Positions 2,529-39,250 of a DNA stretch of 39,680 nt are shown here, in pieces. Within the stretch, counting starts at the first letter, position 1; each line of letters opens with the position of its first letter. Made by a program: the position numbers and the translations under genes. This DNA comes from a virus (Duplodnaviria; Heunggongvirae; Uroviricota; Caudoviricetes): the IMG/VR virus record IMGVR_UViG_2506520037_000006; one strand, 5' to 3'. The notes under the pieces were generated by a model. That model ran no database searches, had not been told where the DNA came from, and worked only from the letters and a program-made list of their open reading frames with translations.

Positions 2529-2715
2529 TGTATTGATTCACTTGAAGTACGAAAAAAACCGGGAGGACATTGGATTATTCGGGATCTGATGGGATTAGAT
2601 TTGGTGGGGCTTGCAAGCCTGTAGTGCAAATTTTAGTCGTTAATCAATGAAACGCGAAAGATAGTAAAAAATTGCTTTTGTTTCATTGAAAATACGAAAA
2701 ACAAAAACACTGCAA
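2529..2715 (+). other. Mu attL: MuA end-binding sites L1, L2, L3
   Basis: Repeated MuA-site-like motifs (gaagtacgaaaaa, tgaaacgcgaaag, gaaaatacgaaaaac) within the first ~190 bp. Confidence 0.75.
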
Positions 2716-2866: not shown

Positions 2867-3457
2867 TTATACGGCTTTTTTTACCTCCTGTGGTTCCTGT
2901 GAAGGTACTACAACACTTTCCTGTTCATGAATCCCATACTTTGACAAAATCTCTTTGCGTTTTTCTTCAGGTAATGCATCTAGCATCATCAACGTCTGAA
3001 TACTTTGCTGTGAAAATCCTATAAAGCTGTAAAGTTTCTGTTCATTAAATACAAGAGGCATTAACGCCAACAACCCCCCTTTACTTAAAAGTTTCAGTGC
3101 CTTGCGTGCTTCATCTGGTTCCAGCTCTTCAATCATATTGATTAAGGTTGTGGTTAATTTGTTTATCAGTTCCGAAGAATCCTGTTTCTCATTGGCTTGA
3201 GCACCAGTATCCGGTGTGGATAACCCCAAGTGCGCAATAACTTGCTCTCGTTCTTTGGTGGGCATCGACATCACATCGTATTCAACAGCTTTCCCCCCCT
3301 TGACACCTTCCTTTTTTCGCTTCGTCCAGCCTTGAACATTTGCTCGATAGTGAACACCAGCAACAGATCCAGGCATACCATCAGCAGCCATAATTTCTTG
3401 CGGCGAACACCAAATTGACTTTTCAGTATTATTCTTTTCTATAAAGTTACTTTTCAA
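2867..3457 (-). CDS. c: Mu repressor c (Repc), 196 aa
   Basis: Translation MKSNFIEKNNTEKSIWCSPQEIMAADG... recognised as Mu c; initiation codon appears to be TTG (3455-3457 on minus strand); residue 47 is Arg. Confidence 0.93.
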   Translation of the reverse strand: MKSNFIEKNNTEKSIWCSPQEIMAADGMPGSVAGVHYRANVQGWTKRKKEGVKGGKAVEYDVMSMPTKEREQVIAHLGLSTPDTGAQANEKQDSSELINKLTTTLINMIEELEPDEARKALKLLSKGGLLALMPLVFNEQKLYSFIGFSQQSIQTLMMLDALPEEKRKEILSKYGIHEQESVVVPSQEPQEVKKAV

Positions 3458-21669: not shown

Positions 21670-22583
21670 TTGTCACCCCGGCATCCATTAAAGCCCTGAT
21701 GACCTCCTGGCGTAAGGATTTTCAGGGCGGTCTTGAAGACGCCCCGTCGCAGTACAACAAAATTGCAATGGTGGTGAACTCTTCCACCCGCAGTAATACC
21801 TATGGCTGGCTGGGTAAATTCCCGACCCTGAAAGAATGGGTGGGTAAGCGAACCATTCAGCAAATGGAAGCGCATGGCTACTCCATCGCCAATAAAACGT
21901 TTGAAGGCACCGTGGGTATTTCCCGTGATGACTTCGAGGATGACAATCTGGGTATTTATGCGCCGATTTTTCAGGAGATGGGCCGTTCTGCGGCAGTTCA
22001 GCCGGATGAGCTGATTTTTAAACTTCTGAAAGATGGCTTTACCCAGCCCTGCTATGACGGTCAGAACTTCTTCGACAAGGAGCATCCGGTATATCCGAAT
22101 GTGGATGGCACGGGCAGCGCGGTTAATACCTCCAACATCGTTGAGCAGGACAGCTTCAGCGGTCTGCCATTCTATCTGCTGGACTGCTCCCGCGCAGTCA
22201 AACCGCTGATTTTCCAGGAGCGCCGCAAACCGGAACTGGTCGCACGTACCCGTATCGATGACGACCACGTTTTTATGGATAACGAGTTCCTGTTTGGTGC
22301 CAGCACCCGCCGTGCTGCCGGTTACGGCTTCTGGCAGATGGCTGTCGCGGTAAAAGGCGATCTGACGCTGGATAACCTCTGGAAGGGCTGGCAACTGATG
22401 CGCTCTTTTGAAGGTGATGGCGGTAAGAAACTGGGCCTGAAGCCGACGCATATCGTTGTACCGGTCGGGCTGGAAAAAGCCGCAGAGCAACTGCTTAACC
22501 GTGAACTGTTCGCGGATGGCAATACCACCGTCTCCAACGAGATGAAGGGCAAGCTGCAACTGGTTGTCGCTGACTACCTGTAA
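21666..22583 (+). CDS. T: T (gp34), major capsid protein, 305 aa
   Basis: ATGA overlap with I stop; size and position of Mu major head subunit. Confidence 0.88.
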   Translation: MIVTPASIKALMTSWRKDFQGGLEDAPSQYNKIAMVVNSSTRSNTYGWLGKFPTLKEWVGKRTIQQMEAHGYSIANKTFEGTVGISRDDFEDDNLGIYAPIFQEMGRSAAVQPDELIFKLLKDGFTQPCYDGQNFFDKEHPVYPNVDGTGSAVNTSNIVEQDSFSGLPFYLLDCSRAVKPLIFQERRKPELVARTRIDDDHVFMDNEFLFGASTRRAAGYGFWQMAVAVKGDLTLDNLWKGWQLMRSFEGDGGKKLGLKPTHIVVPVGLEKAAEQLLNRELFADGNTTVSNEMKGKLQLVVADYL

Positions 22584-26658: not shown

Positions 26659-28731
26659 ATGACCGGGAAACGCTTAAAGGCGTCTGTCATTATTGATCTT
26701 AATGGCAATCTTTCCCGGCGTTCCCGCCAGTATTCGAACCAGATAAACGCCCTGTCCCGTAGCGGGCAAAGTTCCCTTCGTGCCCTGCGTATGGAGGTTG
26801 TGCGCGTTTCTGGTGCCATTGACAGAATGGGTTCACTGTCAACCCGTACATTCCGAATGCTGTCAGCCGGGGCGCTGGGTATCGCTGGCGTGGGTTACAC
26901 CGCCAATAAACTGTTTATTGGTGCAGCCGCCCAGCGTGAGCAGCAGATCATCGCCATGAACTCGCTGTATCACGGCGATAAGGTCAGAGCGCAGGCCATG
27001 ATGGCCTGGGCGAAGCAGAACGCGAAGGACACCACGTGGGGGCTGAGTGGTGTTCTGGATGAGATCCGTTCGTCGAAAGGCTTCGGCATGACGGATGAAC
27101 AGACGAAACAGTTCATCACCATGTTGCAGGATCAGGGGGCCATGCACGGCTGGGATTTACCCACTGCACAGGGTGCCTCACTGCAACTGAAACAGATGTT
27201 TGCCCGCCAGCAAATCACAGCGGCGGATGCCAACCTGCTGACCGGTTACGGTATCAACGTTTATCAGGCGCTGGCGGATGCAACGGGAACGGACGTTAAA
27301 AAAATCCGTGATCTGGGTACAAAGGGCAAGCTGGGCATGAAATCCATTCTGACGGTATTCAGAACGCTGTCAGAACAGTCAAAAGGTGCACAGGCCAGTG
27401 CGATGAACTCCTGGGACGGGATGTTCGCCCAGATGGAAGCCAACCTGCTTGAATTTCGCATAAAGGTGGCAAACAGCGGCCCCTTTGAAGAAATCAAGAA
27501 CGAGATGCGCCGGGTGCTTAACTGGCACGACATGGCGGATAAATCCGGGGAACTTGACGCACTGGCAGAAAACATTGGTCAGAAATTTCTGACCACGTTC
27601 AGAACGGTAAAAATCTCGGCGCAGGAATTATGGCGCTGGCTGAAACCGGGTAAAGATGCGCTGGCATGGGTTGACCAGAATATTGTCAGCCTGAAAAAAC
27701 TGGCTGCTGTTCTGGTGTCTGTCTGGCTTGCCAATAAAGCCCTGAGAGCAGGCTGGGCCGTGGCAAAACCCTCATGGCAGGTTGCCAGTTATCCGTTTAA
27801 AACCGGGCGTCGTATGTGGCGCTGGATGCGAAACCGCAAACGTGGGCAGGCAGGTCTGCCGGTCCCGGATGCCATGACGTCTGAGACGCTGTTGCAGGGT
27901 ATCGGCATTCAGCGTGTGTTTGTCATCAACTGGCCCCGTGGATTTGGTGACTACGGGAGTGGCGGCGGTCGTCGTGTACGGAGCGGCGGAAGAATGGCCC
28001 CGCTGTTACCCCGCCAGCCGTTATTGCTGTCCGGGCCACAGCCGCTGGCATTACCTGCACCACGCCCTGTACTGGCATTACCCCCACCCGGCGTACCGGT
28101 AACGGCACGGCCTGCACCATTACCTTTACCCGGTAAATCCGGTCTTCTGAGCAGGCTTGCAGGCAGTGCTGCCGGGCAACTGGTTACGGGAACGGTCGGA
28201 AAGCTGGCTGATGCCGGGCGTGCCGTTGGCGGGTGGTTTTCCGGTATCGGAAACAAACTTGCAGGCAGTGCGATCGGTCGGGTTGTGACAAAAGGTGCCG
28301 GGGCGCTGGGCTGGATGGGGAAAGGTGCCGGTCGTGCGTTGTCACGTCTGGGGGGCCCGGTAATGGGGGCACTCCAGCTTGCCCCCGTCCTGATGGATGA
28401 GCAGGCGTCAACCCATGAAAAAGCAGGCGCAATTGGCAGTACAGCCGGTGCATGGCTCGGCGGTGCCGTTGGCAGCCTTGCCGGACCGCTGGGTACGGTT
28501 GCTGGTGCCACGCTGGGCAGTGTCGCCGGGGAGTATCTGGGCGGTTTTGTAACCGACCTGTATCAGAAATGGACGGCCACGGATAAGGAACCGCAGGAAC
28601 AAAAAGTCAATGCGGAAGCCTCGCTGCGCGTCGAACTCGGCGAGGGGTTACGTCTGACCAGTTCCCGCGTCACCGAGGATGGTATGGGGCTGAATATTTA
28701 CGCGGGCGATAACTACATTACGGGCTGGTAA
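26659..28731 (+). CDS. N: N (gp42), tail tape measure protein, 690 aa
   Basis: Large protein with central hydrophobic segment and Gly/Ala-rich C-terminal repeats. Confidence 0.85.
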
Positions 28732-28735: not shown

Positions 28736-30223
28736 ATGTTTGAAGATGCTTTAAATGCCGTTAATGCTGTCCGGGATAAAACCGGTGGAGGCAGGAAAAC
28801 AACCGGCAAAGGCACGTTCCGTAACGTGCCGTTTCTCGTCATCGAGGAGCAAAAACAGGCTGGCGGACGTCGCCTGGTTAAACGCGAGTACCCGTTACGT
28901 GATACCGGCGGCGTCAATGACCTGGGGAAAAAGCTTCGCTCCCGTACATTCAGCGCCTGCATTCTGAACAGCAACGCAGAAACAGCCAGAGATGAAGCGG
29001 GTGCGCTGATGGATGCTCTTGATGCTCCGGGTAGCGGTGAGCTGGTACATCCTGATTTCGGCACTGTGGACGTCATGGTGGATTCATGGGAATGCCGCAC
29101 TAAAGCGGATGAACTGAATTATTACGCGTTCACCGTTACCGTTTATCCGTCGTTGCAGGATACTGCCCCGGACGCAGAGACAGACACCAGTGCAGCCGTA
29201 CCGGCACAGGCCGTTGCTGTAACCGGTTCTCTGGGAGATACGCTGTCCTCTGTCTGGCAAACCGTAAAAGATGGCACTGCGGCGGCAACCGCCGTGATGG
29301 AAGCTGTAACCGGTGTCATCGATGATATCAGTGATGCGGTGGACAATCTGGGGGTTACGCAGACTGTCAGCGGTCTGATGGGATCGCTTTCTGCGATGAA
29401 AGGCTCTGTGACCAGCCTGATTAACCAGCCTGCCATGCTGGCCTCCTCGCTGATGGGGGCGCTGTCCGGCGTTTCATCGTTATGCGATACCCGGACAGCA
29501 TTTTCCACATGGAACCGTCTGGCGCAGCGATTCGAACGTCGCCATGCCGCCACCGCAGGCAGACAGGGGACAATCACAACCTCGTACAACAGTCCGGTTG
29601 CAGAAAAAAATATTGCCACACTGAACTACGTCATGCTGGCAGCGGCGCAGACATACCGGGCAGAAGCTGCCAGCCAGGCACTGACTGCGGCACTGGATTT
29701 CAGTCGCCGGATGGATAATGCCGCCCGTGCACCTGTACTGGATGCCCCGTCCACCACAACCGGCACAGCCAGCGGGGCCAGCAGCACATCTGCTACCGTC
29801 ACACAGGGACAGTTACAGTTAACTGCCATAACCCCGGACGGCGGCTTTTCACAGGTATCCTTTTCAGACAGTGGTACAGCCACGCCCCCGGTATTTGAAA
29901 GTGTGTCCGATATCGAAAAAACCACTGCCATGCTGGGGGCGGCGCTGGATAGCGTCATTCTGACGGCATCTGAGCAGGGTTTTTCGACAGACAGTGTTCA
30001 GCTTACGCAACTGCGTCTGCTGGTTGTTGCCGACCTGGAAAAACGCGGGCTGCAACTGGCGGGTAGTGAATCACACCACCTGCCAGAAACGCTCCCGGCA
30101 ATGGTTGCACTGTACCGGTTCACCGGAAACAGCCGGAACTGGCAACGGCTGGCCCGCAGGAACGGTATCAGCAACCCGTTATTTGTTCCCGGTGGTGTCA
30201 GTATTGAGGTGATTAATGAGTAA
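28736..30223 (+). CDS. P: P (gp43), DNA circularization protein/baseplate component, 495 aa
   Basis: Synteny after tape measure; size. Confidence 0.8.
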
Positions 30224-31355
30224 TACCGTCACACTGCGAGCGGATGGCAGGCTGTTTACCGGCTGGACGTCAGTCTCTGTCACCCGCTCGATTGAATCCG
30301 TAGCCGGATATTTTGAGCTGGGGGTGAACGTGCCACCGGGCACGGATTTATCCGGGCTGGCTCCGGGGAAGAAGTTCACGCTGGAAATCGGGGGGCAGAT
30401 TGTCTGCACCGGTTATATCGATTCACGGCGACGCCAGATGACCGCTGACAGTATGAAAATCACTGTCGCCGGACGTGACAAAACGGCTGACCTGATTGAC
30501 TGTGCTGCCGTTTACAGTGGCGGACAGTGGAAAAACCGCACACTGGAGCAGATTGCGCGTGACCTGTGCGCTCCTTATGGCGTTACCGTTCGCTGGGAGC
30601 TTTCCGATAAGGAAAGTTCGGCAGCTTTTCCCGGCTTCACGCTGGACCATTCAGAAACCGTTTATGAGGCGCTGGTGCGTGCCTCCCGCGCACGCGGTGT
30701 ACTGATGACCAGCAATGCCGCCGGAGAGCTGGTATTCAGCCGGGCTGCCAGCACAGCCACTGATGAGCTGGTTCTCGGAGAAAATCTGCTGACACTGGAT
30801 TTTGAGGAAGACTTCCGCGACCGGTTCAGCGAATACACCGTCAAGGGGTATGCCCGCGCAAATGGTGCTGAGGGTGATGATATTGATGCGAAAAGTATCG
30901 TATCCCGGAAAGGGACCGCCACTGACAGTGATGTGACCCGTTACAGACCGATGATCATCATTGCTGACAGCAAGATTACGGCGAAGGATGCACAGGCCCG
31001 CGCCCTGCGTGAGCAACGCCGCAGACTGGCAAAATCCATCACCTTTGAGGCAGAAATTGACGGATGGACTCGCAAGGACGGGCAACTCTGGATGCCGAAC
31101 CTGCTGGTCACTATTGATGCCTCGAAATATGCCATCAAAACCACGGAATTACTGGTCAGCAAAGTCACCCTGATACTGAATGACCAGGACGGGCTGAAAA
31201 CCCGCGTCAGCCTTGCACCACGCGAAGGCTTTCTGGTGCCGGTTGAAAGCGACCGTAAAAACAGGAAAGGCGGCGACAGTAACGGCGGTATTGATGCGCT
31301 GGTTGAAGATTATTATCGCAGACACCCGGAGAAAACGCCGCCGTGGAAAGAGTAA
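30216..31355 (+). CDS. Q: Q (gp44), baseplate hub protein (P2 gpD-like), 379 aa
   Basis: Synteny and size. Confidence 0.8.
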
Positions 31356-31936
31356 ATGATTCCGCCTTGAACCGCCTGCTGACGCCGCTGATGCGTCGTG
31401 TGCGCCTGATGCTTGCGCGCGCTGTTGTTAACGTGATTAACGACGGGCGAAAGGTTCAGAACCTGCAGGTCGGTCTGCTGGATGATGAGGAATCCGATGA
31501 AGTGGAGCGCCTGCAAAATTACGGGCATTTCAGCGTTCCCCTGCCGGGCGCAGAGGCGCTGATTGCCTGTGTAGGCGCACAACGTGATCAGGGGATTGCT
31601 GTTGTGGTGGAAGACCGCCGCTACCGCCCGACAAATCTTGAACCGGGTGATGCAGGCATTTACCACCACGAGGGGCATCGTATCAGGCTGACAAAGGACG
31701 GACGCTGCATCATTACCTGTAAAACGGTTGAGGTTTACGCTGATGAAAGTATGACCGTTGACACACCCAGAACCACGTTTACCGGCGACGTTGAGATCCA
31801 GAAAGGTCTGGGCGTTAAAGGTAAAAGCCAGTTCGACAGCAATATTACTGCCCCGGATGCCATCATCAATGGCAAATCGACGGATAAGCATATCCACCGT
31901 GGCGACAGCGGCGGAACCACAGGGCCGATGCAATGA
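31343..31936 (+). CDS. V: V (gp45), baseplate central spike protein, up to 197 aa (start uncertain; ATG at 31391 possible)
   Basis: Synteny; track ORF starts at GTG 31343. Confidence 0.72.
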   Translation: MERVNDSALNRLLTPLMRRVRLMLARAVVNVINDGRKVQNLQVGLLDDEESDEVERLQNYGHFSVPLPGAEALIACVGAQRDQGIAVVVEDRRYRPTNLEPGDAGIYHHEGHRIRLTKDGRCIITCKTVEVYADESMTVDTPRTTFTGDVEIQKGLGVKGKSQFDSNITAPDAIINGKSTDKHIHRGDSGGTTGPMQ

Positions 31937-32370
31937 CCGATTTAGCCATTATCTGGACGAACGGACGCGGCGATATTGCGCAGGATGGTATTGATATGCT
32001 GACCGACGACAGCCTGACAACCGATGTGACAATCTCCCTGTTTACCGACCGGCGCGCGCTGGATTCTGACACGCTGCCGGATGGTTCAGATGATCGCCGT
32101 GGATGGTGGGGTGACAGTTACCGCGACCGCCCCATCGGTTCGCGGTTGTGGCTGTTATCACGTGAAAAAGCCACGCCGGATACGCTGGAACGCGCCAGAG
32201 GGTATGCCGAAGAGGCGCTGGAATGGCTGAAAACAGCGGGCCGGGTAAGTGCGATTAACGTCAGAGCGGAACAGTTACATCAGGGCTGGTTATACCTCTA
32301 CATTGCACTGACATTACCGGATGGTTCCGTTATTCCTTATGAGTTTAAAGCAGCATTTAACGGGGTTTAA
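31933..32370 (+). CDS. W: W (gp46), baseplate wedge protein (P2 gpW-like), 145 aa
   Basis: ATGA overlap with V stop; synteny. Confidence 0.8.
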   Translation: MTDLAIIWTNGRGDIAQDGIDMLTDDSLTTDVTISLFTDRRALDSDTLPDGSDDRRGWWGDSYRDRPIGSRLWLLSREKATPDTLERARGYAEEALEWLKTAGRVSAINVRAEQLHQGWLYLYIALTLPDGSVIPYEFKAAFNGV

Positions 32371-33453
32371 ATGGCTTATTCACCACCGACATTATCATCG
32401 CTGATTGCCCGTACAGAACAGAATATTGAACAGCGCCTGCCGGGTAGCTGGCCTCAGGCCCGTGAAAAAACGCTGAGTGCCATTGCTTATGCTCAGGCGG
32501 GCCTTGCTGCCGGTTGTCACGAGCATATTTCATGGGTTGGACGGCAGATTATCCCGTCGACAGCAGATGAAGATGAGTTGCTGGAGCACTGCCGGTTCTG
32601 GGGCGTGCGCCGCAAACAGGCGACAGCCGCCAGCGGCCCGCTGACTGTCACCACATCGGCAGCGACCACCATTCCTGCCGGTACACGCTGGCAGCGTGCT
32701 GATGGTGTGGTTTACAGCCTGGCTGATACCATTGTGATTGACCGTGCAGGAACGACGGAAATTACCGTTACCGCACTGGCTGCCGGTGAAGCAGGAAATA
32801 CCGGTGAGAATACCCTTTTAACGTTGATCACCCCGGTTGCCTGTGTTGTTTCCGATGCCATCACTGTAAAAGGGTTTTCCGGTGGAGCTGATATTGAGAG
32901 TGCAGCGGAGCTGCTGTCACGGCTGGAATATCGTGTCCAGTATCCTCCGTTCGGCGGTAATCAGTTTGATTACGTTCGCTGGGCACGTGAAGTCAGCGGT
33001 GTTACCCGTGCCTGGTGTTTTCCGACATGGAAAGGCGGTGGCACAGTCGGGGTGACGTTTGTTATGGATAACCGGAGCAATATTTTTCCGCAACCGGCAG
33101 ACGTGGAACGCGTGGCGGATTATATCGCCGGTCATACTGACCCGATCACTGGTCTGATTGTCGGACAGCCTGACGGTGTAAATGTCACGGTATTTGCGCC
33201 AAAGGCAAAGCCGGTAAATCCACGGATTTATATATCACCGAAGACAGCCGAACTGAAACAGGCTATTACCAACGCCATTAATACCATGTTTTTTAATGAG
33301 GTGATGCCGGGCGGCGCACTTGCCCCCTCCCGTATTATCCGTGCGGTGGCAGGTGTTACCGGTCTGGATGATTTTGAAGTGCGTTTCCCGACAGAGATCC
33401 AGCGTTCGGAGAATACGGAACTCTTAACAGCGGGGACAATTGAATGGCTGTAA
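32371..33453 (+). CDS. R: R (gp47), baseplate J-like protein, 360 aa
   Basis: Synteny and size. Confidence 0.8.
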   Translation: MAYSPPTLSSLIARTEQNIEQRLPGSWPQAREKTLSAIAYAQAGLAAGCHEHISWVGRQIIPSTADEDELLEHCRFWGVRRKQATAASGPLTVTTSAATTIPAGTRWQRADGVVYSLADTIVIDRAGTTEITVTALAAGEAGNTGENTLLTLITPVACVVSDAITVKGFSGGADIESAAELLSRLEYRVQYPPFGGNQFDYVRWAREVSGVTRAWCFPTWKGGGTVGVTFVMDNRSNIFPQPADVERVADYIAGHTDPITGLIVGQPDGVNVTVFAPKAKPVNPRIYISPKTAELKQAITNAINTMFFNEVMPGGALAPSRIIRAVAGVTGLDDFEVRFPTEIQRSENTELLTAGTIEWL

Positions 33454-33986
33454 CACCCTGGCAGACGGCCTTTCTGCAATTACTGCCGTCAGGGCTTGCC
33501 TGGAATAAAAGCCCCGACAGCAAATTATCTGCGCTGGCGCAGGCCATCAGCGACGTGATTGCCACTGCGGCGGATGATGCGCGGCAAATGCTGCGGGAGC
33601 GTTTCCCGTCCACATCCCGCTGGTATCTGGGGGAGTGGGAATCATTTCTGGGGTTGCCGGACTGTACCAGCGAAAACGGCACCCTGTCCGAACGCCAGCG
33701 GGCTGCCGCGAATAAAATGCGTATGACCGGCAATCTGAGTCGGCGCTTTTATGAATGGCTGGCTGCGCAGTACGGTTTTACCGTCAGGCTGACGGATTCC
33801 ACAGAAGGCCAGTGGGTTACGCAGGTCAATATTTACGGTATTAAAAATTATCGCAACGCAACGGTGCTGGATAATGTTCTGACGCCGTTACGTGTTTATG
33901 AATCGGGTGCGCTGGAATGTTTACTGGAGAAATATAAACCCGCGCATCAGATTTATAAATTTGTTTACCATGACGGAGATAACTAA
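33444..33986 (+). CDS. gp48, baseplate/tail protein (P2 gpI-like), 180 aa
   Basis: Overlaps R end; precedes tail fibre gene. Confidence 0.75.
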   Translation: MAVTPWQTAFLQLLPSGLAWNKSPDSKLSALAQAISDVIATAADDARQMLRERFPSTSRWYLGEWESFLGLPDCTSENGTLSERQRAAANKMRMTGNLSRRFYEWLAAQYGFTVRLTDSTEGQWVTQVNIYGIKNYRNATVLDNVLTPLRVYESGALECLLEKYKPAHQIYKFVYHDGDN

Positions 33987-35500
33987 TGTTTTATATTGAT
34001 AACGACAGCGGCGTAACCGTCATGCCGCCCGTATCCGCCCAGCGTAGTGCTATCGTTCGCTGGTTTTCAGAAGGTGACGGGAATAATGTTATCACATGGC
34101 CCGGCATGGACTGGTTTAATATTGTGCAGGCGGAGTTATTAAACACGCTGGAAGAAGCCGGTATTCAACCGGATAAAACAAAATTAAACCAGCTTGCACT
34201 GTCCATTAAAGCCATTATGAGCAATAACGCGCTGCTGATAAAAAATAACCTCAGCGAAATTAAAACTGCCGGGGCATCAGCACAGCGTACAGCACGTGAA
34301 AATCTGGATATCTATGATGCCAGCCTGAACAAAAAAGGACTCGTTCAGCTAACCAGTGCCACTGACAGCCCCAGTGAAACGCTGGCAGCCACCGCAAAAG
34401 CGGTGAAAATTGCAATGGATAATGCCAATGCCCGTCTGGCAAAAGACCGGAACGGAGCAGATATTCCCAATAAGCCGCTGTTTATCCAAAACCTCGGTTT
34501 ACAGGAAACGGTAAACAGGGCTAGGAACGCCGTGCAAAAGAATGGCGATACCTTGTCCGGTGGGCTTACTTTTGAAAACGACTCAATCCTTGCCTGGATT
34601 CGAAATACTGACTGGGCAAAGATTGGATTTAAAAATGATGCCGACAGCGACACTGATTCATACATGTGGTTTGAAACAGGCGACAACGGCAATGAATATT
34701 TCAAATGGAGAAGCAAACAAAGCACCACAACAAAAGACCTGATGAATCTTAAATGGGATGCTTTGTCTGTTCTTGTCAATGCCATTGTAAATGGCGAAGT
34801 CATATCAAAATCAGCAAACGGCCTCCGTATTGCTTATGGTAATTACGGATTCTTTATTCGTAATGATGGTTCAAATACATACTTCATGTTGACAAACTCC
34901 GGTGACAACATGGGGACTTATAACGGATTAAGGCCATTATGGATTAATAACGCTACTGGCGCTGTTTCGATGGGGCGTGGTCTTAATGTTTCAGGGGATA
35001 CACTTTCAGACCGTTTTGCTATTAACAGCAGTAATGGTATGTGGATTCAGATGCGCGATAACAACGCTATCTTTGGGAAAAATATAGTTAACACTGATAG
35101 CGCTCAGGCGTTGCTTCGCCAGAATCACGCCGACCGCAAATTTATGATTGGCGGTCTGGGAAATAAGCAATTTGGCATCTACATGATTAATAACTCAAGG
35201 ACAGCCAATGGCACCGATGGTCAGGCGTACATGGATAATAACGGAAACTGGTTATGCGGTGCTCAGGTCATTCCGGGAAATTACGCCAACTTTGACTCCC
35301 GCTACGTGCGTGACGTTCGGCTGGGAACTCAGTCACTGACTGGCGGCTTGTCTCGTGATTACAAGGCGCCATCCGGTCATGTTATTACAGGTTTTCATAC
35401 CAATGGCGACTGGGAAATGCAGGGAGGGGATGACAAGGTTTATATCCGTCCGGTTCAGAAGAATATCAACGGTACCTGGTATAATGTAGCGAGCGCCTGA
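33986..35500 (+). CDS. S: S, tail fibre: constant part Sc (33986..34480) fused to variable part Sv inside the G segment, 504 aa
   Basis: ORF crosses the left G inverted repeat in frame (peptide [11 protein letters not shown] encoded by the repeat). Confidence 0.88.
34481..34514. repeat. Left 34-bp inverted repeat of G segment (Gin crossover site gixL)
   Basis: ttatccaaaacctcggtttacaggaaacggtaaa; exact reverse complement at 37532..37565. Confidence 0.9.
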
Positions 35501-35502
35501 TT

Positions 35503-36030
35503 ATGATGCATCTGAAAAACATTAAGTCAGAAAATCCAAAAACTAAAGAGCAATATCAGCTAACAAAGAATTTTGATGTTATCTGGTTATGGTCCGAAGA
35601 CGGGAAAAACTGGTATGAAGAAGTAAATAACTTTCAGGACGACACCATAAAGATTGTATACGACGAAAATAATATTATTGTTGCCATAACCAAAGATGCC
35701 TCAACGCTTAATCCCGAAGGCTTTAGCGTCGTTGAGATTCCAGATATAACAGCCAACCGCCGCGCTGATGATTCAGGAAAGTGGATGTTTAAGGATGGAG
35801 CTGTAGTTAAACGGATTTATACGGCAGACGAACAGCAACAACAAGCCGAATCACAAAAGGCCGCATTGCTTTCCGAAGCTGAATCAGTCATCCAGCCGCT
35901 GGAACGCGCTGTCAGGCTGAATATGGCGACGGATGAGGAACGCGCACGACTGGAGTCATGGGAACGCTACAGTGTTCTGGTCAGCCGTGTGGATACGGCA
36001 AATCCCGAATGGCCACAAAAGCCTGAATAA
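35503..36030 (+). CDS. U: U, tail fibre assembly chaperone, 175 aa
   Basis: Translation [24 protein letters not shown]...; paralogous to U' on the opposite strand. Confidence 0.88.
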
Positions 36031-36035
36031 AAATT

Positions 36036-36055
36036 AAGGCCCGATAGCGGGCCTT
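36036..36055. terminator. Hairpin between convergent U and U' (terminator for either orientation)
   Basis: aaggcccg-atag-cgggcctt stem-loop, T-run on minus strand side. Confidence 0.6.
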
Positions 36056-36058
36056 CTC

Positions 36059-36592
36059 TCATTCTGGTTGTTCTGGAAACGTTACTGGCAGGCTGGAGGT
36101 GTCTGTGGATTCGACCTTCTGCGCGTAGAGCATCCACTCTGTTAATTTTTGTTTATTCTCGTCGGAAATGATGCCCAGCCGTAGCTGTGAGTCCCATAGC
36201 TGTGTTTTATCCCTGACGAGCTGTAGCAGGCTTTGCTTTTCATTTTCCGCTTGTTGCCTCTGCTCTTCCTCGGTATAAGTTCGCTTTATCACTACACCAT
36301 CTTTGAACATCCATTTACCCGAAATATCAGCCCGGCGATTTGCTGTAATATCAGGAACCTCAACGACGTTTGCGCCTTCTGGATTAATTGCTGAAACATC
36401 CTTTTCAATACAAATAATAACGCCGTTGTGGTCATAGACCATTTTCAACGTATCAGGCTGAAAGTTCTTTTGTTCCTCATACCAGTTTTTCCCATCCTCT
36501 GTATAAAGCCATTTGATGTTAAATTGTTTCGTTAGCTGGTATTGCTCTTTTGTTTTAGGGTTGCCAGCAGTAATATTTTTTAAGTGCATCAT
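36059..36592 (-). CDS. U': U', alternative tail fibre assembly chaperone (silent in this orientation), 177 aa
   Basis: Translation [24 protein letters not shown]..., paralogue of U. Confidence 0.88.
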   Translation of the reverse strand: MMHLKNITAGNPKTKEQYQLTKQFNIKWLYTEDGKNWYEEQKNFQPDTLKMVYDHNGVIICIEKDVSAINPEGANVVEVPDITANRRADISGKWMFKDGVVIKRTYTEEEQRQQAENEKQSLLQLVRDKTQLWDSQLRLGIISDENKQKLTEWMLYAQKVESTDTSSLPVTFPEQPE

Positions 36593-36594
36593 AA

Positions 36595-37565
36595 TTAAAT
36601 ACTCCCCGCGTTATACCACGTTCCATTAATGCAATACTGAATTGGCCTTGCCTGAGTTGTATCAATTAATTCATCACGGTTTCCGTTAACTGAACCCGTA
36701 ACGACATAACCTGACCTGTCAGACCAGCCGGGACCATTCCATGTCTGAACAGATGACAGACCGCCAAGACGAATACCTGTAATAAACCTTGAGTTACATT
36801 CTGCCTGCGTATATGCACCAACATCTCCCGCTGATGGCTTACGTGTTGTGGTGTAAATTTCTGACCAGTCAGCTTCGAATCCGTAACCATCACGCGCTGA
36901 ACGATAAAAAATACCGCCGTTCCTGTAATTCACACGGAACTGTACGGCAGGGCAACTCCCCGTATTCATATTGAAGTGGAGGATTAATGTCGATGCGCCA
37001 CCAATATTTGCGTTATAGACCCCGCTATTCCAGTTCCAGCCAACAGCTTTATCATTTCCGACAGTGCTTCCTGTTTGTCCTAAAGCAAATGCAGGCTGCT
37101 GGTTTTTCGTGTTGTAGTCTCGTCGCCAGCCAGGAGCATAAGCATCACCATGATTAATATAAGTGAATTGAGCGTTAGTGATTCCGCCGCCGCTGGACGT
37201 ACTCGGCGTAGTAACGCGTATGGTCATTGCGCCGCGAGTGCCAATAACTTCCACCACAGCACCTGCAAGACAAATATTTCCGCAACCTGTATCTGTAATG
37301 ACCTTATTGTTTGCATAAGCCCATGAGCCTTTGCACATCCAGTAAGGATGGTTAAATGCCCCCTGACTCTCCAGCCACGAAATAAATTGTGCGGTTGTCC
37401 AGACCTGACTATCGCCACCAATATTCAGCCATGCGCTATATGCGCGACAGGCCCCAATATTTTTGGTGAAGGTATCTTTTCCTGGAATATCTGCGCCGTT
37501 CTGGTTTTGCTGTAATGCGCCAGAAGCCTGATTTACCGTTTCCTGTAAACCGAGGTTTTGGATAA
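36595..37565 (-). CDS. S': S'v, promoterless alternative variable part of the tail fibre gene (would fuse to Sc after G inversion)
   Basis: Minus-strand reading frame passes in frame through the right inverted repeat encoding [11 protein letters not shown]; no upstream constant part in this orientation. Confidence 0.8.
37532..37565. repeat. Right 34-bp inverted repeat of G segment (gixR)
   Basis: tttaccgtttcctgtaaaccgaggttttggataa, reverse complement of 34481..34514. Confidence 0.9.
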
Positions 37566-37619
37566 TGGTCGATTTTGGCACGCATGGCATGATTGGCGCT
37601 TTTAAACAGGAGATCCAGA

Positions 37620-38201
37620 GTGCTGATTGGCTATGTAAGGGTATCAACAAATGACCAGAATACAGACCTGCAACGAAACGCTCTTGTTTGTGCAGGATGT
37701 GAACAAATATTTGAAGATAAATTAAGCGGAACAAGGACAGACCGACCGGGATTAAAACGCGCTTTAAAGCGCCTTCAAAAAGGTGACACACTGGTTGTCT
37801 GGAAACTGGATCGCCTCGGGCGAAGCATGAAACATTTGATTTCTCTCGTAGGGGAATTACGAGAGCGAGGGATTAATTTTCGCAGTCTTACTGACAGTAT
37901 TGATACGTCATCTCCAATGGGGCGTTTTTTCTTCCACGTTATGGGTGCCCTGGCTGAAATGGAACGAGAACTAATTATCGAGCGAACGATGGCTGGACTT
38001 GCTGCCGCCAGAAATAAAGGCCGTATTGGTGGGCGACCACCTAAACTAACCAAAGCGGAATGGGAGCAGGCCGGGCGTTTATTAGCACAAGGAATCCCCC
38101 GCAAGCAGGTTGCATTGATCTACGATGTGGCCCTGTCAACTCTGTATAAAAAACACCCCGCGAAACGAGCGCATATAGAAAACGACGATCGAATCAATTA
38201 A
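37620..38201 (+). CDS. gin: Gin, serine site-specific DNA invertase, 193 aa
   Basis: GTG start 37620 after SD aggagatcc; translation (M)LIGYVRVSTNDQNTDLQRNALV... with catalytic Ser in VSTNDQ and C-terminal HTH; track ORF starts upstream at TTG 37593. Confidence 0.95.
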   Translation: MLIGYVRVSTNDQNTDLQRNALVCAGCEQIFEDKLSGTRTDRPGLKRALKRLQKGDTLVVWKLDRLGRSMKHLISLVGELRERGINFRSLTDSIDTSSPMGRFFFHVMGALAEMERELIIERTMAGLAAARNKGRIGGRPPKLTKAEWEQAGRLLAQGIPRKQVALIYDVALSTLYKKHPAKRAHIENDDRIN

Positions 38202-38295
38202 ATCGATCGGTAATACAGATCGATTATGCCCCAATAACCACACTCAACCCATGATGTTTTTTAAGATAGTGGCGAATTGATGCAAAGGAGGTGAG
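38187..38295 (+). promoter_or_regulatory. mom operon control region: three GATC (Dam) sites and the C-activated Pmom
   Basis: GATC at 38187-38190, 38205-38208, 38218-38221 followed by ttatgccccaataaccacactcaaccca and candidate -10 taagat; SD aaggaggtgag before com. Confidence 0.8.
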
Positions 38296-38484
38296 ATGAA
38301 ATCAATTCGCTGTAAAAACTGCAACAAACTGTTATTTAAGGCGGATTCCTTTGATCACATTGAAATCAGGTGTCCGCGTTGCAAACGTCACATCATAATG
38401 CTGAATGCCTGCGAGCATCCCACGGAGAAACATTGTGGGAAAAGAGAAAAAATCACGCATTCTGACGAAACCGTGCGTTATTGA
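38296..38484 (+). CDS. com: Com, zinc-finger translational activator of mom, 62 aa
   Basis: Translation [32 protein letters not shown]... matches Mu Com. Confidence 0.95.
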
Positions 38485-39130
38485 GTATGAAGGCCAGATT
38501 GTTGGCTATGGTTCAAAGGAGCTGCGCGTTGAAACCATATCCTGCTGGCTGGCCCGCACAATTATTCAGACAAAGCACTATTCCCGCCGTTTTGTGAATA
38601 ACTCTTACCTTCACCTGGGGGTATTCAGCGGACGCGATCTGGTTGGCGTTCTCCAGTGGGGATATGCCCTTAACCCCAACTCAGGTCGTCGTGTCGTGCT
38701 TGAAACGGATAACCGGGGCTATATGGAGTTGAACCGCATGTGGCTACACGACGACATGCCCCGCAACTCTGAATCACGGGCCATCAGCTACGCGCTGAAA
38801 GTTATCAGATTACTGTATCCGTCAGTGGAGTGGGTTCAGTCCTTTGCAGATGAACGCTGCGGACGCGCAGGCGTTGTGTATCAGGCGTCGAATTTTGATT
38901 TTATTGGCAGTCATGAAAGTACGTTCTACGAGCTGGATGGTGAGTGGTATCACGAGATAACGATGAACGCGATTAAGCGAGGTGGACAACGAGGCGTGTA
39001 TTTACGGGCTAATAAAGAGCGTGCCGTGGTACACAAATTTAATCAGTATCGCTACATCAGATTCCTGAACAAACGAGCAAGGAAGCGGCTAAATACCAAA
39101 CTATTCAAGGTTCAGCCATACCCTAAGTGA
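38435..39130 (+). CDS. mom: Mom, DNA adenine modification enzyme (anti-restriction), 231 aa from GTG 38435 (in-frame ATG at 38405 would give 241 aa)
   Basis: Overlaps 3' end of com in another frame; translation ...[25 protein letters not shown]...; last gene before right end. Confidence 0.9.
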
Positions 39131-39169
39131 TCCCCATGTAATGAATAAAAAGCAGTAATTAATACATCT

Positions 39170-39245
39170 GTTTCATTTGAAGCGCGAAAGCTAAAGTTTT
39201 CGCATTTATCGTGAAACGCTTTCGCGTTTTTCGTGCGCCGCTTCA
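39170..39245 (+). other. Mu attR: MuA end-binding sites R3, R2, R1
   Basis: Repeats gaagcgcgaaagctaaagttttcgc / cgtgaaacgctttcgcg / tttttcgtgcgccgcttca ending in CA at 39245. Confidence 0.8.
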
Positions 39246-39250
39246 GCCGC
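39246..39250. repeat. Right copy of 5-bp target-site duplication (GCCGC), also the continuation of the interrupted REP unit
   Basis: gccgc followed by atccggca. Confidence 0.85.

Follow-up and report, generated by a model that had tools for sequence, protein, structure and literature searches.

The invertible G segment of the bacteriophage Mu prophage in Escherichia coli W, found in the G(+) orientation

Introduction

Since about 1980 the G segment of bacteriophage Mu has served as a textbook example of programmed inversion of DNA and of host-range switching in phages. Here we analyze IMG/VR record IMGVR_UViG_2506520037_000006, a stretch of 39,680 nucleotides that we call the window and number from its first letter. 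We regard it as virtually certain that an element in this window, bounded by inverted repeats, is the G segment itself, a site-specific inversion switch for host range that lies in the G(+) orientation within the Mu prophage of Escherichia coli W. Particles made in the G(+) state bear the fibre protein S and its partner U and infect E. coli K-12; with S' and U', in the G(-) state, the hosts include E. coli C, Enterobacter and Serratia (PMC4406740). Lysates obtained by induction contain both types of particle in equal proportions, and those grown by infection contain mostly one (PMC4406740).

Among the closest relatives of this system is the C segment of phage P1 with its invertase Cin (NC_005856), which is built on the same plan. 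Its S gene is split, its Sv-U and U'-S'v cassettes converge, its recombinase is a serine invertase, and its enhancer lies within the 5' portion of the gene for that invertase. The cassette DNA of P1 is about 91% identical to that of Mu over 64% of the query. At about 4.2 kb (annotated 32225..36480) the P1 segment exceeds that of Mu, and its constant fibre part, Sc, is unrelated and much longer. The invertase genes are also arranged differently. In P1, cin points at the segment; its 3' end lies beside cixL and its enhancer is about 0.5 kb from the nearest recombination site. In Mu, gin points away from the segment and has its enhancer about 0.1 kb from gixR.

The H segment of Salmonella enterica with Hin and the P segment of e14 with Pin are also close relatives. 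The segment turned by Hin contains a promoter and controls flagellin expression; what the G segment moves are gene ends without a promoter, and the result is a change of phage fibre. The hin gene is part of the segment it inverts, and gin sits outside its own. The mechanism is shared, with two 26-bp sites and a 65-bp enhancer that has a 15-bp core for the host protein Fis at each end and sits about 100 bp from one of the recombination sites (PMC3798978). Pin, the invertase of the cryptic E. coli prophage e14, is able to invert the G segment, and the P segment is shorter than G, at 1.8 kb (PMC12529663).

Results and Discussion

Along its whole length the window is E. coli W chromosome. A megablast search against phage records matched positions 2529-39245 to bacteriophage Mu (AF083977 / NC_000929; 36,717 bp) in one piece on the plus strand, with W chromosome flanking the phage on either side; adding 2528 to an AF083977 position gives the position in the window. 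Compared base by base with AF083977, the prophage shows 3 mismatches in 36,717 bases. None of these falls between 32900 and 39245 (AF083977 30372-36717), a region that includes the G segment, gin, com and mom, and a separate comparison of 33900-38300 with AF083977 31372-35772 gave 100% identity. The locus shares with the reference G segment and its gin gene the same bases, gene order, gix sites and orientation. Nothing differs within the switch; the three substitutions lie elsewhere, and Mu is here integrated in E. coli W instead of packaged. Because the element is the Mu G segment itself and not a relative of it, it was already known, and it holds nothing biologically new.

The segment is framed by perfect 34-bp inverted repeats at 34482-34515 (plus strand) and 37532-37565 (minus strand), which cannot be extended by a single base in either direction and which enclose 3016 bp. 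A sequence-only reading of the same DNA had placed the right arm correctly and the left arm at 34481-34514, one base off; as given, that left arm pairs at only 16 of 34 positions, and the total span is 3084 bp rather than the 3085 bp it had claimed. With these two corrections the earlier account is confirmed, and its interpretation is supported. Each repeat contains one copy of the 26-bp gix core TTATCCAAAACCTCGGTTTACAGGAA, which occurs exactly twice in the window, in inverted orientation and without a difference between the copies. gixL occupies 34482-34507, with the crossover dinucleotide TC at 34494-34495, and gixR occupies 37540-37565, with GA at 37552-37553. The G-segment boundaries annotated in Mu (31966 and 35025) correspond to window positions 34494 and 37553 and fall in the central TC/GA of both sites. 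In 100 shuffles of the sequence we found no gix core even with 3 mismatches allowed, and no other 26-mer in the window reaches 18 matches out of 26 (best at most 17/26), which leaves no third site. Two inverted 26-bp sites with an asymmetric central dinucleotide are the arrangement typical of serine invertase switches that depend on Fis and an enhancer.

The genes around and within the repeats follow the reference Mu order, Sc, Sv-U, U'-S'v and gin, in both the list of open reading frames (ORFs) and the AF083977 annotation. In the ORF list, S runs from 33986 to 35500 and encodes 504 aa. Its constant N-terminal part, Sc (33986..34493, plus strand; AF083977 misc_feature 31458..31966), lies outside the invertible segment, and its variable C-terminal part, Sv (34495..35500, plus strand), is the one expressed in the present orientation. 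The protein matches PDB entry 5yvq, 'Tail fiber protein S', over residues 1-504 and contains the Pfam domains Gp34_trimer and Phage_fiber_2. It is followed by U (35503..36030, plus strand, 175 aa; AF083977 Mu_50), the assembly chaperone paired with S, which matches Caudo_TAP (E = 6.7e-37). A fibre with a receptor-binding C-terminal part, followed by a chaperone of the Caudo_TAP type, is the hallmark of a host-range cassette.

On the minus strand lies the second cassette, silent in G(+). It comprises the alternative chaperone U' (36059..36592, 177 aa; Caudo_TAP, E = 3e-37; AF083977 misc_feature 33531..34064) and the alternative fibre part S'v (36595..37552, with its stop at 36595; AF083977 misc_feature 34067..35024). 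S'v matches Pfam gp37_C and lacks its own start codon and promoter. U shares 56% identity with U' (E = 8e-75), and both begin with the same residues, MMHLKNI, as expected of the paralogues that the sequence-only reading had taken them to be. The annotation of AF083977/NC_000929 describes the present orientation as expressing S and U and labels U' and S'v 'in G(-) phage', and we assign the window to the G(+) state on the basis of these labels. The earlier assignment to G(+) agrees with this, and the positions it had given for S, for U after it, and for the convergent U' and S'v are exact in both the ORF list and the reference annotation.

Inverting 34482-37565 in silico joins Sc to S'v in frame and yields an S' of 488 aa, with U' (177 aa) starting 2 nt past the stop codon. 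S and this predicted S' are identical up to residue 177, and inversion leaves the sequence upstream of gin unchanged. PDB entry 8ju3 holds an S/S' chain of 488 aa, equal in length to the S' made in silico. The alternative cassette had been proposed to lack both a promoter and a constant region. Indeed, S'v needs Sc to complete S', and a simple scan of the minus strand inside G upstream of S'v found no sigma-70-like site.

Both orientations of the segment are present in public assemblies. We searched all complete E. coli genomes (5,426) for the G(+) left junction and for the G(-) left junction made in silico, at a coverage of at least 80%, and found the former in 24 genomes and the latter in 9. 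The most direct comparison comes from E. coli W itself. The whole window corresponds to NC_017635.1 332044..292365, reverse complement, except inside the G segment: the two differ only within 34516-37531, and once the window is inverted there are 0 mismatches in 39,680 bases. A second E. coli W assembly, NC_017664.1, has the orientation of the window and is identical to it over 29882-39215 (9.3 kb compared). These are independent finished assemblies that carry opposite forms of G at the same coordinates, which bears out the earlier suggestion that an assembly may capture either state. Additionally, the hubt-sl record combines W-type flanks and a 100%-identical junction with the G(-) form, and strain ST18 (NZ_CP060709.1) has two copies of Mu, one G(+) at 388731 and one G(-) at 498718. 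The occurrence of both orientations is a further property of Fis- and enhancer-dependent invertase switches.

Inverted repeats are a classic source of orientation errors, and our comparison used finished assemblies instead of reads. It could be argued that the orientation of NC_017635.1 is an artefact of assembly at a short inverted repeat, in which case the comparative evidence would be void and the element would still be the Mu G segment. We think this very improbable. A repeat of 34 bp is shorter than reads of any type from which finished genomes are built; reads can therefore cross it and settle the orientation, and the inverted form in NC_017635.1 is exact to the base. The G(-) junction is also found in other independent genomes and, within ST18, beside a G(+) copy. 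Moreover, inversion of G in lysogens is long established (PMC4406740).

We give still less credence to a frozen relic, in which the anatomy is intact and the segment no longer inverts, leaving G(+) fixed in this prophage. The window does show one orientation only, and a 1-bp change beside the crossover site of the related phage SfMu has been proposed to block inversion there (PMC4406740). However, gin, both gix sites and the enhancer region are identical, base for base, to those of functional laboratory Mu, and two E. coli W assemblies with Mu at the same insertion site differ by the inversion only. The hubt-sl genome, with its W-type flanks, is also G(-). These comparisons favor a working Mu G segment over one that has stopped.

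As a separate observation from the junction search, the Mu copies of the conjugation donors S17-1 (NZ_CP040667.1) and ST18 are 100% identical to the window at the G junction.

The invertase gene gin (37620..38201, plus strand; AF083977 Mu_51) lies outside the segment, encodes 193 aa and starts with GTG, behind an AGGAG ribosome-binding site at 37608-37612. Its product contains the Pfam domains Resolvase (E = 6.7e-50) and HTH_7 (E = 2.4e-17), with Ser9 inside the motif VRVSTNDQ, and matches the PDB entries 3uj3 and 4m6f, both 'DNA-invertase', over residues 1-193, which places it among the small serine recombinases. We compared the gene with 65 invertase genes from viral contigs (loci L009-L088) at 76-99% protein identity; together with Mu gin these make a set of 66 distinct genes. 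Nine of them, the Mu clade, use GTG as their start codon; in the remaining 57 an ATG occupies that position. The GTG at 37620 that the sequence-only reading had named is the annotated start and aligns with these 57 ATG codons. We take the 57 ATG-start invertases to be probably Pin-like; on that label, the Pin-like proteins are 76-82% identical to Gin, share with it the invariant nucleotide runs TCAACAAATGACCAGAA and GCAGGATG discussed below, and begin with ATG instead of GTG.

The residues that link the recombinase to its enhancer are also in place. In Hin, activation by Fis and the enhancer has been tied to Lys47, basic residues at 48 and 51, Gln151, Arg154 and Leu155 (PMC3798978). Read from the translation, and with Gin numbered one lower than Hin, the equivalents Lys46, Arg47, Lys50, Gln150, Arg153 and Leu154 are all present; the cited paper treats such residues as specific to invertases that depend on Fis.

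One further repeat lies close to the crossover region. An imperfect 25-nt inverted repeat, 88% complementary, pairs 34443-34467 in Sc, outside G, with 37484-37508 in S'v, inside it. It doubles a motif that codes for NGADIP beside the crossover region, and in S' it gives a duplicated peptide motif, the second copy of which is QNGADIPGKDTFTKNIG. The repeat may be the trace of an old duplication of the crossover region, whose adjoining DNA now has no resemblance to gix.

A multi-site inversion system with more than two fibre ends, of the shufflon type (Rci, R64) or the Min type of plasmid p15B, is about as hard to credit as a frozen relic, since the NGADIP-coding repeat could be what is left of an older site but the DNA beside it does not resemble gix, the window has two gix sites only, and the recombinase is a serine invertase and not a tyrosine recombinase like the Rci of shufflons. 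We rejected membership in either family on the same two counts, and the two-site G segment of Mu accounts for the locus.

Mu inversion is expected to involve a recombinational enhancer, which the sequence-only reading had expected within the first part of the gin coding sequence. According to the title of Kahmann et al. 1985, as it stands in the reference list of PMC3798978, the Mu site lies 'within the invertase gene'. In the P1 record the enhancer of cin is annotated at nt 19-90 of that gene, and this stretch aligns without gaps to gin nt 19-90, where the identity of the two genes is 76%, compared with 67% gene-wide. Because our literature searches found no measured coordinates for the Mu enhancer, we took its limits from the P1 annotation. 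By this homology the predicted enhancer (sis) would span 37638..37709, or codons 7-30 of gin.

Nucleotide conservation also points to this stretch. Across the 66 invertase genes, the longest nearly invariant run of nucleotides is 37644-37660, TCAACAAATGACCAGAA, and a second invariant run, GCAGGATG, is found at 37692-37699. Codons 9-13 form the longest stretch without synonymous variation (five codons), a result that 74 of 20,000 permutations equalled, although this figure overstates the independence of the sequences because the 66 genes are interrelated. The low-diversity signal is local, at both ends of the predicted enhancer. We place candidate 15-bp Fis cores, which would hold the invariant runs, at 37642-37656 and 37690-37704; their positions, drawn partly from the hin sequence, are an inference. 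Their centres would be 48 bp apart, and about 96 bp would separate the centre of gixR from the closer of the two. One match to the Fis consensus, at 37690-37704, coincides with a candidate core. Taken together, the title of the 1985 paper, the P1 annotation and the conservation fit an enhancer in the first part of gin, as had been expected.

Transcription of the cassettes would begin outside the segment. The only promoter annotated upstream of S on the same strand is the Mu late promoter inside gene N (29815..29881, plus strand; AF083977 'late promoter' 27287..27353), which lies outside the invertible segment, and we therefore presume that it is the source of the S/U or S'/U' transcript and drives the fibre operon in both states.

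Between the convergent U and U' genes, a GC-rich hairpin with an 8-bp stem and a 4-nt loop occupies 36036..36055, exactly where the sequence-only reading had put it. The 51-nt stretch 36020-70 around it folds at -19.7 kcal/mol (z = -4.0 compared with shuffled sequence). The hairpin probably terminates transcription of the fibre operon whichever way the segment lies. Its tail on the minus strand, AATTTTTATT, has a run of T (36036-36065), and the site scored as terminator-like on that strand; the tail on the plus strand, the direction read in G(+), is CTCTCATTCT and has no such run. An improbable extension is that the terminator is asymmetric: in the G(-) direction the hairpin is followed by AAUUUUUAUU, as in a canonical intrinsic terminator, and in the G(+) direction by CUCUCAUUCU. 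If termination were poor in G(+), late transcripts would run antisense through U' and S'v and then sense into gin and com/mom. Were this true, the state of the switch would influence the dosage of the invertase or whether the stored cassette is silenced.

These elements fit the accepted course of inversion. The present analysis shows how the locus is built, that inversion in silico fuses the fibre gene in frame, and that both states exist; for the chemistry, the requirement for Fis and the host ranges we draw on the literature. Inversion by Gin depends on host Fis and on negative supercoiling (Kahmann et al. 1985; Koch and Kahmann 1986, as cited in PMC3575834 and PMC3798978), and the chemistry of serine invertases and the synapsis with Fis and the enhancer have been described (PMC3575834, PMC3798978). 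On this model, Gin dimers bound to the two gix sites would meet the Fis-bound enhancer on supercoiled DNA and form a synaptic tetramer; the enhancer joined in the tetramer would be the one inside the first 90 bp of gin. Ser9 would then cut both strands of both sites at the central TC/GA, half of the tetramer would rotate by 180 degrees, and religation would leave the 3.0-kb segment turned. With an asymmetric TC/GA core, sites in inverted orientation would give inversion. The fibre gene is a split one, with Sc and, presumably, its promoter outside, and Sv-U and S'v-U' head to head inside. In G(+) the phage makes S (504 aa) and U and adsorbs to E. coli K-12, and in G(-) it makes S' (488 aa) and U' and adsorbs to other hosts.

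Nothing contradicts this reading, and the following points only limit it. The window itself records a single molecular state, G(+). The limits of the enhancer and the binding of Fis to it are predicted from sequence comparison. Pooled synonymous diversity is only marginally low in gin codons 8-29 compared with the rest of the gene (0.27 vs 0.34, p = 0.06). A scan of the window with the Fis consensus GNNYRNNWNNYRNNC gave 70 matches against 86.6 expected by chance, which is uninformative, and we did not use it as evidence. Finally, a simple scan of the interval between gixR and gin found no sigma-70-like promoter for gin.

Structures of Gin, S and S' have already been solved, and the value of the locus lies elsewhere. 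It serves as a positive control, a real invertible switch recovered from raw sequence with near-exact coordinates. It also argues that inversion differences between assemblies should be read as phase variation and not as strain divergence or error.

Annotation of the silent cassette is a related concern: in automatic pipelines the orientation of the segment decides whether the cassette becomes a free-standing fibre gene, wrongly started, or a pseudogene. In RefSeq, the silent S'v is a free-standing 'tail fiber protein' coding sequence whose false start lies beyond gixR (Mup52, WFL_RS01375; window 36595-37590, minus strand). In the G(-) assembly of E. coli W it is Sv that is silent, and it is marked as a pseudogene that lacks its N-terminus. 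The inconsistently annotated silent cassette recurs in our loci L003 (6714-7709), L004 (6666-7682) and L006 (3068-4054).

The surrounding prophage is a clean insertion. Its ends are canonical, TGTATTGATTCACTTG... at 2529 and ...CGCCGCTTCA at 39245, and a 5-bp target duplication, GCCGC, is present at 2524-2528 and 39246-39250 within a REP-like palindrome. Within the Flag-2 locus the prophage is flanked by genes for a glycosyltransferase and a cytidylyltransferase. The genome paper on E. coli W places this Mu prophage in a non-coding part of that locus (PMC3032704). A search of the window against Rfam found no RNA families.

One of the three differences from the reference changes a protein. At window position 3318, codon 47 of the c repressor encodes Arg here and Gln in AF083977, whereas the other two, at 21800 (gene T) and 32037 (gp46), are synonymous. 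We presume that the Gln47 of AF083977 is the heat-sensitive cts62 allele, in which case the repressor in the E. coli W prophage would be the wild-type one; a literature search on that substitution gave no usable result. Laboratory Mu was originally detected in a K-12 Hfr stock (PMC3562280), which makes it curious that the prophage resident in E. coli W is nearly identical to it.

The same insertion site is occupied differently in NZ_CP026085.1 (3778400-3779000, our locus L008), a genome labelled DH5alpha. There, W-type flanks enclose 225 bp in place of the prophage, made up of 69 nt of the Mu left end (window 2529-2597) and about 70 nt of the right end (~39174-39245) with a scar between them. 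We take the sequence between the Mu ends to be an FRT scar left by recombineering. We considered a deletion caused by Mu and rejected it in favor of engineered removal of the prophage, with the scar between short Mu ends; the genome is a W derivative engineered to lack Mu and apparently carries the wrong label.

A last observation concerns mom, which has no bearing on the G segment. The ORF list, RefSeq NC_000929 (Mup55) and the E. coli W annotation all start the gene at the ATG at 38405 (region 38405-39130), and the start curated in AF083977 corresponds to window position 38435, 30 nt downstream of that ATG.

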